Positions 7,689 through 16,090 of a stretch of DNA of 41,371 nucleotides are shown piece after piece. Each line of letters starts with the position of its first letter. Within the stretch, counting starts at the first letter, position 1. Under the pieces are notes generated by a model. It did no database searches. It was not told where the DNA came from and was given only the letters and a program-made list of their open reading frames with translations. This DNA is from Minisyncoccota bacterium (GTDB lineage: Bacteria > Patescibacteriota > Minisyncoccia > JAHIHE01 > JAGLIN01): the NCBI GenBank assembly GCA_023143145.1, contig JAGLID010000067.1, forward strand, positions 1 to 41,371, given 5' to 3'. The position numbers were made by a program, and so were the translations under genes.

Positions 7689-9341
7689 TTATAATTTTAA
7701 GTGTTTTGTCATATATTCATCCTCAAGTTTATATCCTAATTTTCGATAATAGCCACGTACGCCAACACCGCTGATGACGGCGATTTTTTTTAGGCTAAAT
7801 TCTTTATGGGTTATTTTTTCTGCTTCTTGAATTAATCTTTTACCGAGGCCAGTGTGTTGGGTATGTTTTTCGCCGATTGACTTGATAGGGGCTAAAGTTC
7901 CATAAGTGTGAATTTCACGGATAATACTGGCATTTTGGAGGGCGGGGATGATTGAATTTTTGCATTCTGAAGAGTGAACTCCAGTTCTGTTAATCCTTAA
8001 CCTTAATAAAGAACAGAGATGCTGTCTTTTTTTATCTTCAAAACTCAGAAAGATTTCTTTGCCGTTCGATGCTTCGTAGTCTTGTCGAAATAGTTGTAAA
8101 TTATTATTACTTGAGTTTTCAATCCCCCAATCTTTCTTATCAGGGAGGAAGATTCGATTTCTAATCTCACGACATCTGATACATTTGCATTTCCAATTTT
8201 CTTCTTTAGATTTTTTTTCAAGAGTTTGTCTGAGATTGGAAATTTTGTTTCCAGCTACAATGCTAGTTGAAGGGATGTCGCGAATTAGGCGAGTGATGCG
8301 AACATAATAGGGAATATCTTTTTTGATTTCACAAAGTAGCTGAATCAGTTTTTTATCAGAATATGGTTTATATTTTCCACTTTTCCACCACTTGAAAATT
8401 TTTGCATCTTTGACAACAACACACGGATAAATTTTAAGCATATCAGGTTGATAGTTCAAATTGGAAAAAAGTTCCTGAAACATTTTCAAATCTCGTTTAT
8501 AATTTGACCCTGGAAGATTTGGCATCATATGATAGTTGATTTTGAAACCCGCTTCTTTCAGTAATCTTGTTGCCGTGATAACCTCTTTACTGCTATGTCC
8601 TCGAGCATTCAGTTTGAATACATCATCGTAAATTGTTTGTACTCCAATCTCAACTCTTGTGGCTCCCAGTTTTCTCATGCGTAATATTTCTTTCTCATCA
8701 ATATAATCAGGACGAGTTTCCAGTGTGAGCCCAACAATTCTGTGATCTGAGGTTTCATTTTCTTTTTGTAGACTTTCAAGTGATAAATTTTTTGATTTAT
8801 TTTTTTTGTTAAACTCATTACAGACCTTGAAACATTCCTTGATAAACCAGTTTTGATAGTTTTTCGGTAAATAGGAAAAAGTTCCTCCCATCACAATCAA
8901 TTCAATTTTATCTGTTTTATGGCCGGTCGCCATCAGAGATTTAATTCTCGCTTCCACTTGTTTGCGGGGATGAAAATCAGTAAGCACAGCGCGCATTACA
9001 GCTGGTTCGTTGGAAAGATAACTTTTAGGCATATTTTTTTCACTTGGACAAAATTTACATTTCCCAGGACATGGATATGGTTTGGTTAAAACTGCAATTA
9101 CAGCAACGCCTGATGAGGTACGAATATTTTTGGTCATTAAAACATTTTCAATTTCTTTTAGCGAATCATCTTTTGTCATTTTTCGATAAAATTGAAGTAG
9201 CTCGATATTCGTTGGACATGGCATTTTGAATTCTTTTGAGGCCCTTCTTTTGAGCTTGGAAAGATATTCCGAAGAAAGCTGTCTTTTTCTGACAGAAACT
9301 TTTTTAATTAGTTCGTTGATAATATATTGGTTGATGTTCAT
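7689..9341 (-). CDS. elp3: Elp3-type radical SAM / GNAT acetyltransferase (tRNA U34 cm5 modification enzyme homologue)
   Basis: 550 aa with radical-SAM CxxxCxxC (CPGKCKFCP) and TIM-barrel motifs IVMGGTFS and ATRVEIGVQTIYDDV. The C-terminal GNAT acetyl-CoA loop is HTGLGKRLIQEAE. Confidence 0.85.
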   Translation of the reverse strand: MNINQYIINELIKKVSVRKRQLSSEYLSKLKRRASKEFKMPCPTNIELLQFYRKMTKDDSLKEIENVLMTKNIRTSSGVAVIAVLTKPYPCPGKCKFCPSEKNMPKSYLSNEPAVMRAVLTDFHPRKQVEARIKSLMATGHKTDKIELIVMGGTFSYLPKNYQNWFIKECFKVCNEFNKKNKSKNLSLESLQKENETSDHRIVGLTLETRPDYIDEKEILRMRKLGATRVEIGVQTIYDDVFKLNARGHSSKEVITATRLLKEAGFKINYHMMPNLPGSNYKRDLKMFQELFSNLNYQPDMLKIYPCVVVKDAKIFKWWKSGKYKPYSDKKLIQLLCEIKKDIPYYVRITRLIRDIPSTSIVAGNKISNLRQTLEKKSKEENWKCKCIRCREIRNRIFLPDKKDWGIENSSNNNLQLFRQDYEASNGKEIFLSFEDKKRQHLCSLLRLRINRTGVHSSECKNSIIPALQNASIIREIHTYGTLAPIKSIGEKHTQHTGLGKRLIQEAEKITHKEFSLKKIAVISGVGVRGYYRKLGYKLEDEYMTKHLKL

Positions 9342-11411: not shown

Positions 11412-11720
11412 ATGCCAAATTATGACCAACCAGAAGAAATGTCGATATCACCAGAGACTGGGAATAATAATGAGGATATGGAATTAATATTTACAAAATT
11501 AAAGGAATTAGACGAAAAGGGAGCTTTGACGGAGGATGATGTGAAATGGTTTAATGATACTGATATTAGTAGTGAATTCTGTTCTCTTGAAAAATTGCTT
11601 TACACGGGAAAAGAAGAAGAAGAAGAAGATGATGGTTCTGAAAGGCTTAATACATCAAAACTTCTTCGTAGGAGCGTTACTGAAAAAGTTAGAGGGTGGG
11701 AAAAAGATAATTTAGAATAA
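11412..11720 (+). CDS. acidic hypothetical protein
   Basis: 102-aa ORF preceded by AAAGGA 8 nt upstream, with a plausible TTGACT-17-TAAACT promoter at 11320-11348. It contains a (GAA)5 run encoding EEEEE and is followed by a strong hairpin terminator. Confidence 0.5.
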   Translation: MPNYDQPEEMSISPETGNNNEDMELIFTKLKELDEKGALTEDDVKWFNDTDISSEFCSLEKLLYTGKEEEEEDDGSERLNTSKLLRRSVTEKVRGWEKDNLE

Positions 11721-11842: not shown

Positions 11843-12205
11843 ATGATAGCAGAATATTTTGTGAATTTGCCGTTGAATTTTGTGAAAGGGATTATAAATT
11901 TCCTTTATATTTGGTATGTTTCAAGTTCACGAGATTTTTGGCATAAGGAGATTGGTTTTGCGAAGGGGATTGAAAATGAAATGGGTGCTTTTATAAACTT
12001 AAAATTATTATTTCAACCAATATACGGAGACTATTCATATATAGGCAGAGTCATTGGACCTATTTTTCGGTTTGGACGAGTTTTGGTTGGTTTTTTTATG
12101 ATGCTAATTTCAATTGTAGTCGTGGTAGTTATATATTTGATATGGATAATTTTACCACCACTTACTTTTTTGATGATTTATTCAAACTTGACTTATATAT
12201 TTTAA
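11843..12205 (+). CDS. membrane protein, unknown function
   Basis: 120 aa with a hydrophobic N-terminus and a C-terminal TM pair (VLVGFFMMLISIVVVVVIYLIWIILPPLTFLMIY). It ends 9 nt before the Clp-like gene and is probably co-transcribed with it. Confidence 0.5.
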   Translation: MIAEYFVNLPLNFVKGIINFLYIWYVSSSRDFWHKEIGFAKGIENEMGAFINLKLLFQPIYGDYSYIGRVIGPIFRFGRVLVGFFMMLISIVVVVVIYLIWIILPPLTFLMIYSNLTYIF

Positions 12206-12214
12206 ATTTTTTCA

Positions 12215-15058
12215 ATGCCTCCTAAAGAAAAAAAGAAAAAAGAAAAAAAACTTAGAACAGAAATTGTTCAGTGTCCTGCTTGCAGTGGGAATAAAGTTAT
12301 TGAAAAGGGCGTTGACTGTCAGTCCTGTCAGGGAAGGGGAGTTTTTTTGCGAGTTGGAACTGATATGGTGTACTATTGGGATAAGAAGGTTCTAGGAATT
12401 TCTCCTTCTGTGCACTCCATTTTCAAAATGTTTTCTAAGGGCATTCGTTTGCTCATTTATTTTTTAGTTCTTGTGACTTCTTTGTACGGTATTTATTTTA
12501 TTGTTGTTAGTAATCCTAAATTTGTTATTAATTTCGAAAAAGGATTAAGATTAATAACAGGATCTGACAGTGAATACGTAGTACAATTATTTCTTGCAAT
12601 ATCTTTGTTTTTTCAACATTTCGTAAAGGCTTTTTTTGTCATATTTGAGGAGAGAGGTTTTGGACCATTGGTGTTCTGGATTGGAGTTTTAGGGTCAATG
12701 TATTGCTATTATTATCTAAAAATCAAAGATGCATCTCGAAAAGTAATAGATTTTTCATCTTCTGATTTCGAAGTGTTTACTAGTAAATATGCAGATAAAA
12801 TAAAAGGTAATGTTGATATTAGTAACTATATCTCTGCCTCTGCTATGGAAATTTTGAAAGAAGCTCTTTGCTTAGCTCACAGTCTTAAGCAAGTTCCATC
12901 TATTTTTCATTTAGCAAAAATAGTTTCACAGAATTCACAAATAGAAGTATTGTTTAAAAGATTGGAAATTGATTCAAAGGAATTTTCAAGATATATTAAC
13001 ATTTTAATTAAAGATGTACCAAAAAATGATTATTATAACCAAGAAGGAATTTTCAATAGTACTGTTATGAGTCCTCAGCTTGAAAAAGTAATTCTTGTGG
13101 CTTTTTATGAAACTGTAATTATGGGGATGGAGAAAATCCATACGGAAAGTTTTTTTCTGACATTTTTTGGCGACGACAGTTTGAGCAAATATTTTAAAGA
13201 TTTGAATATAGAAGTTGAAGATGCTAGAAAAACTGTTCTTTGGGTTAATAGTTGGGCGAATACAAGAGTGAGGCTTGACCGTCCGCGAAAAATTAGCCAT
13301 TCAGTGATGAATAAGGCTTGGACAGCAAGAGTTACGCCAGAGCTTGATAGTTTTACGTATGATCTTACAGATCAGGCAAGATCTGGTATGATGGGCAATA
13401 TAGTGGATAGAGAAAAAGAACTTGACAACTTGATGAGAATTCTTGAAAGAACAAGTAAAAACAATGCCCTGTTAATTGGGGAAGAAGGTAGTGGAAGATC
13501 AACTATAGTGAAAAAGCTGGCAAATAGAATGGTGAAAGACCAAGTTTTGCCAACATTACGAGACAAGCGTTTGGTTGTTTTGGATGTGGGCTCTTTGGTT
13601 TCTGGAGCGGGCGTCGGAGGCAATTTTGAAGGGAGAATCAGGGCAATGATTGACGATATGGGAAAGAGTGGTAATATAATATTGTTCATTCCAAATATAC
13701 ATGACATTTCTGCGGCTGGAAGTGGGGGAGGTTTTGATGCTTCAAAGGTTTTGTCTCCAATTTTTTCTCAAGGAATTTTTCAGGTAATTGGTTCAACTGA
13801 TTATCGGAATTATCATCGATATATTGAACCTCGAGCTGATTTTGCAAATAGTTTTGATTTTGTAAAAGTGGAGGAAATGGACGAAAATCAAGCAATTGAA
13901 GTTTTGGCAGTGCGGGCAAAAATTATTGAAGCTAGGGAAGGAATTGTTATGACTTATGGGGCAATTAAATCAGCAGTTGAACTCTCTAAGAGATATATAA
14001 CTAACAGAATTTTACCAGGAAAGGCAATCGATCTTCTGAGTGAAACAGCTGTAGAAGTGCGAAGAAGAGGATCAGGTTCTGTTCTGCGAGATCAAGATAT
14101 TATGGAAGTTATTACTGAAAAAACTGGAATACCACTAACAAATATAAATTCTAATGAAGCGGAAAAACTCATGGATTTGGAGGAAAATTTGCATCAAAGA
14201 GTTATTGGTCAAAAAGATGCCGTAAAGGCAATTGCATCATCAATCCGGAGGGTTCGAGTTGGTATGAAAAACGAAAATCGTCCCATAGGAACATTTTTAT
14301 TTTTGGGTCCTACAGGAGTCGGTAAGACGGAGCTTGCTAAGGCATTAGCAGAAGCATATTTTGGCGATGAGGATGCAATGATAAGAGTTGACATGAGCGA
14401 ATATCAAACACTTGACAGTGTCGAAAAACTGATTGGATCATCAAGTGACTTGTCAGATTCTTCTATGGGTGGGGTTTTGACTGAGGCCGTGAAAAGAAAA
14501 CCTTTTTCTTTGGTTCTTTTGGATGAATTAGAAAAAGCAGATAAGAATGTGTTTAATATCTTTTTGCAAGTTTTTGATGATGGAAGATTGACTGATAATC
14601 TCGGTAGAACTGTTGATTTCACAAATACAATTATCATTGCAACTTCAAATGCAGGTTCAAAAGTTATTAGCAAGATTGTTGTTGATGAAGATAATAGTAA
14701 TGAAAGAATACTCCAGATGCTTGAACCATATCTTTTGCAAAGCTTTGCCCCTGAATTTTTAAATCGTTTCACAGCTCGAATTGTTTTTAGGTCATTGAGT
14801 CAAAAGGATGTGATGGCAATTACCAAGCTTCAAATTAAGAATTTAGCAAAAAGAATGGACAAGGCTCAGGGAATTAAGATTAAAATCTCTGGTGGAGCAT
14901 TGAAAATTATAGCGGAGCTTGGATATAGTGCTGAATATGGAGCAAGATTTTTGCAAAGAACAATTCAAGAAAAAGTAGAAAATTTGATTGCTACAAAATT
15001 TTTGAAAGGGGAGATAAAAAGGGGAGATGTCTTTGAGATTAAAAAAGAAGACTTATAG
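12215..15058 (+). CDS. atypical membrane-anchored Clp/Hsp100-family AAA+ protein with an N-terminal DnaJ-type zinc finger
   Basis: 947 aa. The N-terminus has CPACSGNK ... CQSCQGRG (CxxCxGxG x2), followed by hydrophobic helices and two AAA+ modules. D1 is degenerate (GEEGSGRS and ILFIPNIH, versus the canonical GEPGVGKT and ILFIDELH). D2 is canonical (GPTGVGKT, LVLLDELEKA, ATSNAG, GARFLQR). Confidence 0.8.
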   Translation: MPPKEKKKKEKKLRTEIVQCPACSGNKVIEKGVDCQSCQGRGVFLRVGTDMVYYWDKKVLGISPSVHSIFKMFSKGIRLLIYFLVLVTSLYGIYFIVVSNPKFVINFEKGLRLITGSDSEYVVQLFLAISLFFQHFVKAFFVIFEERGFGPLVFWIGVLGSMYCYYYLKIKDASRKVIDFSSSDFEVFTSKYADKIKGNVDISNYISASAMEILKEALCLAHSLKQVPSIFHLAKIVSQNSQIEVLFKRLEIDSKEFSRYINILIKDVPKNDYYNQEGIFNSTVMSPQLEKVILVAFYETVIMGMEKIHTESFFLTFFGDDSLSKYFKDLNIEVEDARKTVLWVNSWANTRVRLDRPRKISHSVMNKAWTARVTPELDSFTYDLTDQARSGMMGNIVDREKELDNLMRILERTSKNNALLIGEEGSGRSTIVKKLANRMVKDQVLPTLRDKRLVVLDVGSLVSGAGVGGNFEGRIRAMIDDMGKSGNIILFIPNIHDISAAGSGGGFDASKVLSPIFSQGIFQVIGSTDYRNYHRYIEPRADFANSFDFVKVEEMDENQAIEVLAVRAKIIEAREGIVMTYGAIKSAVELSKRYITNRILPGKAIDLLSETAVEVRRRGSGSVLRDQDIMEVITEKTGIPLTNINSNEAEKLMDLEENLHQRVIGQKDAVKAIASSIRRVRVGMKNENRPIGTFLFLGPTGVGKTELAKALAEAYFGDEDAMIRVDMSEYQTLDSVEKLIGSSSDLSDSSMGGVLTEAVKRKPFSLVLLDELEKADKNVFNIFLQVFDDGRLTDNLGRTVDFTNTIIIATSNAGSKVISKIVVDEDNSNERILQMLEPYLLQSFAPEFLNRFTARIVFRSLSQKDVMAITKLQIKNLAKRMDKAQGIKIKISGGALKIIAELGYSAEYGARFLQRTIQEKVENLIATKFLKGEIKRGDVFEIKKEDL

Positions 15059-15421
15059 ATTAAATTAAACCTGTTAAGTGAAATATATGAGATTAAAAAA
15101 AGAAGGTGAGGGAGTATTTGAAATATTTTTAAATATTTTTATGCCAATTTGGCTACCAATTCGTGCTATTCAAATGATGTTAAAGGAGATTAAAGATGAG
15201 AAAAGAAAGAGAGAAGAGATGGAGAAATAAAATTTTAGTAGTATTAATGTTTCTGATTAAAACTATGAGCAAAGTGTTGATTTATAAAAAATAACTTTTT
15301 TTAAAAAAGAATACTGTTAATAATGTTTTGAGAAATGAAAGATTATAAGTAATTTATATTTCCTAAATGAAATTATTAAAATATATTGTAATGTCTTGAA
15401 TAATTCTGAATTAATTTCAGA

Positions 15422-16090
15422 ATGGCAATTTTATCAATTAACAAAAAAACTATGGGAAGAAAGCAAAAGCTTAAACTTCAACGAAGAATTGAAGAAAAAA
15501 ATGAATTTGTAACGAAGAAGGAAAATAATAAAAAATTAATAATAAGTGTTGTTTTTTTAGTTTTATTTGTTTTAGTCATTTGGCAAATCGGTATTGCTGT
15601 AAAAAAAGATCAGAACATAGAGCAGCTTAATAGTTCTATTGAAAATAAAATTGCGGTGATTGAAACTAATAAAGGCAATATAAAAATAGAATTGTTTACA
15701 AACGATGCACCAAAAACTGTGGAAAATTTTGTAAAACTGGCAAGCGAAAATTTTTATGATGGAATTAAATTTCATCGGGTGATTTCAGATTTTATGATTC
15801 AAACAGGAGATCCACTGAGCAAGGATGACAATCCAGCAAATGACGGAACTGGTGGTCCTGGATATTCTTTTGAAGACGAAATAAACTCTCACAAAGTTGA
15901 AGTTGGATCTTTGGCGATGGCAAATTCAGGTCCAGACACGAATGGAAGTCAGTTTTTTATTGTTACGGAAAAAGCCCAACCACATCTTGATGGAAAACAT
16001 ACTGTTTTTGGAAAAATACTTGAAGGCATGGATGTTGTAACAAGTATTGAACAGGGAGATGTGATGAATAAGGTTTATTTTGTAAAGTAA
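15422..16090 (+). CDS. cyclophilin-type peptidyl-prolyl cis-trans isomerase with an N-terminal membrane anchor
   Basis: [35 protein letters not shown] and [14 protein letters not shown]. The N-terminal TM is [22 protein letters not shown]. The start could instead be the in-frame Met 11. Confidence 0.85.

Follow-up and report, generated by a model that had tools for sequence, protein, structure and literature searches.

Clp/Hsp100 machines are the textbook case of polypeptide threading by tyrosine paddles. A gene on a contig from a Minisyncoccota bacterium (GenBank assembly GCA_023143145.1, contig JAGLID010000067.1; the window is the whole stretch of 41,371 nt) raises the question of what such a machine could do when it is fixed to the membrane, keeps one working ring, and has lost those tyrosines. 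The gene is an open reading frame (ORF) whose product of 947 amino acids (aa), hereafter the Clp protein, is a class-I Clp/Hsp100 protein. From N- to C-terminus it carries a C4 zinc finger, then a putative membrane anchor, and after a Clp_N-like domain two AAA+ modules, of which the first (D1) appears dead and the second (D2) is intact. An earlier sequence-only reading of this DNA had proposed one active, membrane-tethered ring that probably cannot thread substrates, and a possible partner encoded just upstream. The answer toward which we lean is an ATP-driven, ClpP-independent membrane remodeling machine, specific to the ultra-small Patescibacteria, that works without tyrosine-paddle threading.

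Family membership and fold

Both AAA+ modules and a ClpA/ClpB/ClpC-like fold place the protein among the double-ring class-I Clp/Hsp100 ATPases. Its Pfam matches are AAA_2 (PF07724, E value 1e-53), ClpB_D2-small (PF10431, 5e-20), AAA_lid_9 (PF17871, 2e-12), and AAA. The best match in a phmmer search against PDB sequences was Bacillus subtilis ClpC (8.6e-140). An AlphaFold2 (AF2) model was built from a 53-sequence alignment, with a mean predicted local distance difference test (pLDDT) score of 79, and its best Foldseek matches were structures of ClpC and ClpB (E values of 1e-57 to 1e-44; ClpC, 2e-57). The NCBIfam models for ClpB, ClpV, ClpA, and ClpG/K all match the protein far under their cut-offs; ClpB scores best (TIGR03346, 588 bits vs a cut-off of 1232), and ClpA (TIGR02639) reaches 510 bits vs 993.

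The hallmarks of the canonical subfamilies are missing. HMMER alignment to ClpC and the AF2 model both lack a long coiled coil between D1 and D2, so there is no middle domain (M-domain), in agreement with the sequence-only reading; the protein thus has neither the M-domain insertion in the D1 small domain nor the TIGR03346 score that mark ClpB. The same alignment opens a six-residue deletion exactly at NKYVGF of ClpC, the ClpP loop. The (I/L/V)G(F/L) docking tripeptide, already suspected to be missing, is therefore absent, and the protein has neither the docking loop nor the equivalog score of ClpA, ClpC, or ClpE. Ahead of D1, the AF2 model contains eight helices between residues 186 and 348, corresponding to the Clp_N-like helical region that had been expected there, and a disordered linker separates this domain, which ends at residue 348, from D1. 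From residue 286 onward, phmmer pairs the protein with the second repeat of the ClpC N-domain. Matches to Clp_N (PF02861) are present in homologs; in the Clp protein itself there was none at E <= 1.

One dead ring and one competent ring

Alignment to ClpC sets each Walker and pore-loop motif at the site claimed for it, so these residues are not merely shifted, and the nucleotide positions first given for R428 and P493-N494 are correct. In D1, Walker A reads GEEGSGRS (nt 13478–13501) where ClpC has GEPGVGKT, with R428 (nt 13496–13498) in place of Lys. Walker B reads ILFIPNIH where ClpC has ILFIDELH, with P493-N494 (nt 13691–13696) in place of Asp-Glu. The pore loop, GAGVGGNFEGR vs GTKYRGEFEDR in ClpC, has GVG where KYR is expected, so the D1 tyrosine is lost as proposed. 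Two further losses had not been listed before: the arginine fingers RR are replaced by NS (N545-S546), and the residue after the conserved sensor-1 Thr has changed from T to D. Among 68 homologs, the Walker A Lys position holds Arg in 60 and Lys in eight, the Walker B Asp is absent from all (with Pro there in 67), and both arginine fingers are missing throughout; the pore loop carries Ala or Val. Judged by the Walker A Lys, the Walker B Asp-Glu pair, and the arginine fingers, none of which it retains, D1 is catalytically dead.

D2 has an intact Walker A (GPTGVGKT) and Walker B (LLDELEKA). Residues K704, D770, E771, N812, R851, and R911 are invariant in all 68 homologs, and the module has the Walker A Lys, the Walker B Asp-Glu pair, the sensor-1 Asn, the arginine finger, and the sensor-2 Arg. 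By these residues D2 is fully competent, and the idea of a single active ring holds across the homolog set, in which the D2 catalytic residues are kept and those of D1 lost. The D2 pore loop has changed. It reads GSSSDLSDSSMGG (nt 14435–14473) vs GSPPGYVGYDEGG in ClpC, with DLSD opposite GYVG and a Leu at the Tyr position, which makes the reported loss of the tyrosine a substitution and not a plain deletion. Neither ring of the Clp protein therefore carries the aromatic pore-loop residue found in KYR of D1 and GYVG of D2. This loop is fast-evolving: at ~57%–60% identity its variants are rich in Gly, Ser, Asp, or Glu, and in more distant relatives it is four to six residues shorter.

Predicted zinc finger and membrane anchor

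A Lys-rich tail (aa 1–17) precedes the zinc finger, and an alignment of 53 homologs shows no variation at C20, C23, C35, C38, or G40. The finger had been called DnaJ-type, which fits its CxxCxGxG motif pattern, but the Pfam matches are sub-threshold (Anti-TRAP, E value 0.0014; DnaJ_CXXCXGXG, 0.008). A true DnaJ Cys-rich domain (PF00684) was rejected, with two CxxC motifs instead of the four CxxCxGxG repeats that build two zinc centers, and a score of 16.8 bits vs a cut-off of 32.7.

The sequence-only reading had allowed two to four hydrophobic helices. AF2 gives four within residues 64–173, but only those at ~76–99 and 149–173 are conserved across all relatives, so the conserved number of transmembrane (TM) helices is two and even. 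Family-averaged hydropathy has a strong TM signal at 79–98 and a second peak at 125–144. Homologs at 33%–47% identity lack the whole segment ~99–145 and keep TM helix 1 and the helix at 149–173; in one protein, P0058, the inserted segment is hydrophilic. Rather than being a conserved TM helix, 121–145 thus probably lies outside the cytoplasm or at the membrane interface. Lys/Arg-rich flanks lie on both sides of the hydrophobic helices, with KIKDASRK after the last. Because the distant relatives lack ~99–145, the conserved architecture fits an N-in, C-in arrangement with two TM helices around an external loop. This would place the Lys-rich N-terminus, the zinc finger, and KIKDASRK in the cytoplasm, which agrees with the need for ATP. 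An odd number of TM helices with the ATPase outside the cell was considered and rejected: distant relatives have no more than two hydrophobic helices, the middle one being an insertion confined to this clade, and the fused forms described below retain the TM helix of the partner together with the last TM helix of Clp. Membrane tethering, as first suggested, is supported by the two hydrophobic helices kept superfamily-wide and by their Lys/Arg-rich flanks.

A small membrane protein as partner

The 120-aa membrane protein put forward as a possible partner is encoded by an ORF that ends 9 nt upstream of the Clp gene. AF2 places helices at 2–47 and 66–119 (pLDDT 88), and the protein is predicted to be a two-helix hairpin. 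Its N-terminal part, which includes the invariant residues W24, Y25, P59, G68, and R76, would be cytoplasmic, and a TM helix would follow at ~81–117 in the C-terminal part. It has no Pfam or NCBIfam match, and Foldseek found no PDB structure at E below 3 for its model. A profile search returned 1148 homologs; among the 120 listed, all source names were Patescibacteria or Candidate Phyla Radiation (CPR) entries called "hypothetical protein."

Of the 32 genomes of the order, 30 encode the partner. Among the 28 order genomes with Clp, 26 have the partner gene immediately 5' of the Clp gene and in the same orientation. In all contigs examined but one, a partner homolog stands directly 5' of Clp. 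This includes Komeilibacteria-like contigs, in which the Clp protein is only 33% identical and the two genes overlap by 13 nt. Across the phylum, the partner domain occurs in 107 of 401 evenly sampled genomes (27%; 86 of 320 genera), once per genome.

Gene fusions link the two proteins further. Thirty-three of the 107 partner matches sit within open frames of 575–920 aa, and in each of the eight long frames inspected the partner domain is fused N-terminally to a Clp-like ATPase that has two rings but no zinc finger. Loci L021–L028 carry natural fusions of this kind, and another protein, P0075 (775 aa), is a further partner::Clp fusion (hhalign probability 99%, E value 3e-18). In two fused proteins (L025 and L024), BLAST homology to the Clp protein starts at residues 147 and 151, where the last TM helix lies; the alignments reported for the remaining fused proteins start at Clp residues between 73 and 365. 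One or two long hydrophobic stretches follow straight after the partner motif. We read the fused layout as partner, last TM helix, Clp_N, D1, and D2, an arrangement that would make the N-terminal helical part of the partner cytoplasmic and give it a single membrane span. The occurrence of fused and split ("Rosetta-stone") forms is strong evidence that the partner and Clp act as one unit, and together with the synteny it bears out the suggested partnership.

One close relative, P0070 (618 aa, from a JGI contig), has the partner running in frame into Clp just after the zinc finger. This join could reflect a true deletion, or it could be an artifact of the assembly or of the reading frame.

Distribution and evolution

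A word-index search identified ~70 full-length homologs with 41%–91% identity, all from Patescibacteria (Paceibacteria/"Pacebacteria"). Those with names are all annotated "ATP-dependent Clp protease ATP-binding subunit," a public label that is probably misleading for this protein. Among species representatives, a search with the N-terminal 380 aa of the Clp protein detected the gene in 28 of the 32 genomes from the order and in 23 of the 24 from the family. Wherever found in the order, the gene is single-copy with an intact frame of ~945–960 aa. Conservation was scored on 65 sequences as the average share of the most frequent residue at each position, and is 0.84 for the D1 large domain, 0.82 for the D1 small domain, 0.84 for the D2 large domain, 0.59 for the zinc finger, and 0.45 for the TM region. 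D1 is conserved as strongly as D2, which indicates that the dead ring is under strong purifying selection.

An all-against-all search with residues 1–380 produced 49 clusters at 50% identity, and most full-length clusters (880–930 aa) have the layout of two CxxC motifs, TM, Clp_N, D1, and D2. BLAST with the N-terminal region across the phylum found it in only three of 401 genomes; this region diverges too fast, and the partner profile is the better phylum-wide marker.

The assembly (1.28 Mb, 92% complete) also encodes ClpP, ClpB, a ClpC-like fragment, and FtsH. Its ClpB is canonical, with an M-domain and the motifs GEAGTGKT, KFRGEFEER, ILFIDELH, RRFQ, and GYIGY, and so has pore-loop aromatics in both rings (KFR and GYIGY). 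The ClpC-like fragment (contig C14, 11866–12297, minus strand), cut by the contig end, carries GYVGY and LGF and is a likely partner of ClpP. That the Clp protein stands in for a missing FtsH, ClpB, or ClpC was rejected because all are encoded in the same genome; with ClpP also present, it is an extra, specialized paralog.

In a maximum-likelihood tree, canonical ClpB and ClpC form one clade (support 100), and the membrane-anchored forms all fall outside it. Most fused forms retain a canonical D1 (GKT, DE, and one Arg); among forms with TM helices only, D1 varies and is degenerate in several. Both pore loops are without an aromatic residue in the split, fused, and TM-only relatives compared, including those with a canonical D1. 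Since the aromatics are missing even where D1 is canonical, loss of the paddles is a trait of the whole membrane-anchored group, and on this pattern D1 was inactivated later, in certain lineages only, among them the one to which this protein belongs. Full-text searches of the literature found no description of this Clp family.

A three-gene cassette and its neighborhood

Directly 3' of the Clp gene lies a conserved 47-aa ORF, MRLKKEGEGVFEIFLNIFMPIWLPIRAIQMMLKEIKDEKRKREEMEK, that the sequence-only reading had not listed (Table 1). It is 43%–68% identical to ORFs at the related loci L007, L008, and L012, with an uncalled homolog in L010. Its profile matches 22 of the 24 family genomes, directly after Clp in 19 and as a tandem duplicate in one (G424), and the signal fades outside the family. 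In the product, a core that is amphipathic or hydrophobic (FMPIWLP) is combined with a tail rich in Lys, Arg, and Glu, and a search of the family library gave no match to a known family. Going by profile and synteny, the partner, Clp, and 47-aa genes are a three-gene cassette (11843–15230) in this family.

Table 1. Features of the window that bear on the Clp protein, its partner, and the surrounding genes
Feature	Position (nt)	Strand	Basis or remarks
Class-I Clp/Hsp100 paralog, predicted to be membrane-anchored, 947 aa	12215–15058	+	ORF, Pfam, phmmer, AF2, Foldseek
C4 zinc finger, aa 18–45, CPACSGNK-x7-CQSCQGRG	12266–12349	+	Invariant Cys; AF2 beta-hairpins at residues 15–54
TM helix 1, aa ~76–99	12440–12511	+	Family-mean Kyte-Doolittle hydropathy up to 2.3; in all relatives
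Inserted hydrophobic helix, aa ~121–145	12575–12649	+	AF2 helix; missing in relatives at 33%–47% identity
TM helix 2, aa ~149–173, GPLxFW motif with invariant W155	12659–12733	+	Alignment of relatives
Diverged Clp_N-like domain, eight helices, aa 186–348	12770–13258	+	AF2 helices 208–266 and 287–348
D1 pseudo-ATPase module (predicted)	13337–14134	+	ClpC alignment; residue counts in 68 homologs
D2 AAA+ module (predicted active) and D2-small domain	14150–15055	+	PF07724, 1e-53; PF10431, 5e-20
Partner gene, 120-aa small membrane protein	11843–12205	+	AF2, profile search, synteny, fusions
Conserved 47-aa ORF	15087–15230	+	Profile and synteny in family; alternative GTG start at 15078
Cyclophilin-type peptidyl-prolyl isomerase with N-terminal TM anchor	15422–16090	+	Pfam (PF00160, 8e-51)
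102-aa very acidic ORF, between RidA-like and partner genes	11412–11720	+	No family match
Elp3-like radical S-adenosylmethionine gene	7689–9341	−	Long-range synteny

Downstream of the cassette are genes for a TM-anchored cyclophilin, a methyltransferase-like protein, an amino-acid permease, VanZ, and MraY, and the dcw genes. MraY scores 217 bits, above its cut-off, and the MraY/dcw genes begin 3.3 kb downstream; the same arrangement is found in L007, L008, L012, L014, and L015. The cyclophilin is probably extracytoplasmic; its gene comes after the cassette in the window and at L007, L008, and L009, but not at L010 or L012. Upstream, the Elp3-like gene and a UbiE-type methyltransferase gene stay 5' of the cassette in L007, L008, L010, and L012, which indicates long-range synteny in this order. 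For the acidic 102-aa ORF, no gene is called at the matching place in L007; it may be lineage-specific or not a gene.

Elsewhere in the phylum, 12 of 57 sampled genomes, spread over six other families, have a PF00953 gene immediately after partner-Clp, where ~2% would be expected by chance. The adjacent protein was nearer to WecA than to MraY in all four cases inspected, below the cut-off. A universal MraY/WecA linkage was rejected on these numbers and because the adjacent paralog differs between lineages, and an envelope-synthesis link of the cassette is a lead only.

Gene order at individual loci is as follows. Partner, Clp, and a WecA/TagO-like PF00953 transferase occur together in L029–L034 (genomes G253, G018, G360, G308, G095, and G046, from six other families). 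A ~155-aa membrane protein comes after the PF00953 gene in L029–L032 and L034, with rplU (L21) a few genes on. The Clp proteins of L032 and L034 have lost the zinc-finger cysteines and retain the FxxW motif after the finger. Three Komeilibacteria-like loci (L013, L019, and L020) have, in this order, one or two prepilin-type N_methyl proteins, partner-Clp, and a class-II tRNA synthetase, a conserved neighborhood that differs from that of the window.

Proposed mechanism and alternatives

In the remodeling machine that we favor, with moderate confidence, six protomers would form a ring with its D1/N-domain face against the inner face of the membrane. The ring would be held by 12 TM helices and by the TM helices of six partner subunits. 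D1 would be a static assembly or scaffold ring; ClpA D1 and NSF D2 are precedents for rings that mainly hold an assembly together. D2 would be the only motor, and its ATP turnover would drive conformational work, either on the partner or on a client that is embedded in the membrane or close to it. The aromatic loss in all compared membrane-anchored relatives and the fast-evolving D2 loop make non-processive action most likely, which would take the form of a grip, switch, or remodeling step as proposed for torsins; hand-over-hand threading with tyrosine paddles, the mode of ClpB, ClpC, and ClpA, is improbable. The machine would neither feed ClpP nor cooperate with DnaK via an M-domain.

Several observations weigh against this proposal. 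The hexamer, membrane insertion, zinc binding, and partner contact are inferred from sequence. AF2 puts the long hydrophobic helix 121–145 beside TM helix 2, and if it spans the membrane the topology needs revision. The D2 pore loop in the closest clade follows the pattern S-D-(L/M/I)-S-E, with a conserved aliphatic residue at the Tyr position; four relatives at 57%–59% identity retain Tyr there, and 15 relatives have a Tyr four residues earlier in the loop. An aliphatic residue or a Tyr in this loop could allow weak or specialized gripping of substrates. The earlier statement that the protein probably cannot thread is thus supported by the missing tyrosines, but the conserved L/M/I at the D2 position keeps it short of a demonstration.

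The main rival takes up this point and is, in our judgment, unlikely but a serious contender. The protein would be a membrane-protein dislocase that threads weakly but genuinely, like the AAA ring of FtsH or like Msp1, with the aliphatic D2 residue gripping the substrate and D1 acting as a passive collar. Its substrates would be membrane or secretory proteins, drawn from the bilayer through the channel of the ring. With a TM anchor at the N-terminus, the entry face formed by D1 and the N-domain would have to lie toward the membrane, as it does in FtsH; D2 appears fully competent; and the retained aliphatic or Tyr residues in the closest clade and the four relatives would provide the grip. Some AAA+ pore-loop tyrosines tolerate hydrophobic replacement with partial activity. 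In the superfamily at large, however, D2 loops are either shorter or made up of Gly, Ser, Asp, or Thr and offer nothing hydrophobic at the Tyr position, and the D1 loop has Ala or Val. The genome already encodes FtsH, and there is no attached or docked protease for extracted proteins.

A fuller version of the remodeling proposal names the parts and the target, and we hold it to be doubtful as a whole. The machine, lineage-wide in Patescibacteria, would consist of six Clp subunits, six 120-aa subunits, and, in this family, the 47-aa protein. Threading would have been abandoned early, with the pore-loop aromatics gone from all membrane-anchored forms, and D1 would later have become a pseudo-ATPase scaffold in some lineages. 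The D2 cycle would act through the TM ring to gate, assemble, or regulate a membrane target, for which the opening lipid-linked reaction in the synthesis of envelope glycans, carried out by WecA/MraY-type transferases, is a candidate.

A special case of the remodeling proposal, and an improbable one, is a dedicated regulator or assembly factor of envelope precursor synthesis acting on a polyprenyl-phosphate sugar-phosphate transferase, either WecA/TagO-like or MraY, or on envelope proteins encoded nearby. The excess of PF00953 genes after partner-Clp, the preference of four of these for WecA, and the true MraY with dcw genes 3.3 kb downstream in the window speak for it. Against it, 45 of the 57 genomes have no PF00953 neighbor, the paralog differs (MraY here and WecA-like elsewhere), and pilin-like and tRNA-synthetase genes are the neighbors in other lineages; the linkage is also explicable by inherited gene order.

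The public annotation would make the protein a membrane-bound form of ClpC or ClpA that works as a protease subunit with ClpP. The genome does encode ClpP, and ClpC is the best match in both sequence and structure, but the docking loop is deleted, the scores lie far below the ClpA and ClpB cut-offs, and a separate ClpC-like protein with an LGF loop is encoded in the genome, which leaves this reading very little probability. A decaying or functionless paralog, suggested by the many degenerate catalytic motifs, is hardly credible and a pseudogene or relic is ruled out by the conservation data, since frames are intact in 28 of 32 genomes, D1 is conserved like D2, the D2 catalytic residues and zinc-finger cysteines are invariant, and the operon partners are conserved.

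Comparison with known systems

The Clp protein and its relatives are a deep, widespread, probably membrane-integral Hsp100 branch tied to a small orphan membrane protein as neighbor or fusion. Their function, once known, would define a new Hsp100 mode of action and give a role to one of the commoner unannotated CPR gene pairs, in a group whose membrane and envelope biology is largely unknown.

With ClpC and ClpA the protein shares its pair of AAA+ modules, the Clp_N-like N-domain, and the D2-small domain, and like ClpA it has no long M-domain. It differs from both by its two predicted TM helices, N-terminal zinc finger, dead D1, missing pore-loop tyrosines, deleted ClpP loop, obligate small membrane partner, and position outside the ClpB and ClpC clade. 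ClpB and Hsp104 are likewise ClpP-independent class-I Hsp100 proteins, and TIGR03346 is the best NCBIfam match. Here, though, there is no coiled-coil M-domain, and hence no coupling to Hsp70, and again no pore-loop tyrosines and a dead D1.

The zinc-binding domains of ClpE and ClpX provide a parallel for a C4 zinc site placed N-terminally on a Clp ATPase or chaperone, and DnaJ and anti-TRAP share the CxxCxGxG motif pattern. Here, only two CxxC motifs (one predicted zinc site) are present, 11 residues apart, and the membrane anchor separates the finger from the ATPase. Related lineages do without the finger and have the partner domain in its position. FtsH is also an AAA+ hexamer anchored N-terminally in the membrane with its entry face toward it, a geometry that the Clp protein would share. 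FtsH is built from one AAA module, which has an aromatic pore loop and is fused to an M41 protease; the Clp protein has neither the loop nor the protease.

Torsins are Clp/Hsp100-related, membrane-associated, without aromatic pore loops, and cofactor-dependent (PMC5425593). Paired with a dedicated membrane cofactor (LAP1 or LULL1) at the endoplasmic reticulum and nuclear envelope of eukaryotes, they are the closest functional precedent, by analogy, with any claim of homology limited to the shared Hsp100 ancestry. Descent from Hsp100, pore loops without aromatics, and predicted membrane attachment are features of the Clp protein as well. Torsins have a single AAA+ module, lack an arginine finger of their own, and act in the lumen of the endoplasmic reticulum. 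The Clp protein, in contrast, has two rings, keeps the D2 arginine finger, and is predicted to be cytoplasmic, and its partner is a predicted helical hairpin and not AAA-like. If the fuller version of the remodeling proposal is true, bacteria would have their own example of the torsin principle, and Clp/Hsp100 proteins would have gained a new way of acting.

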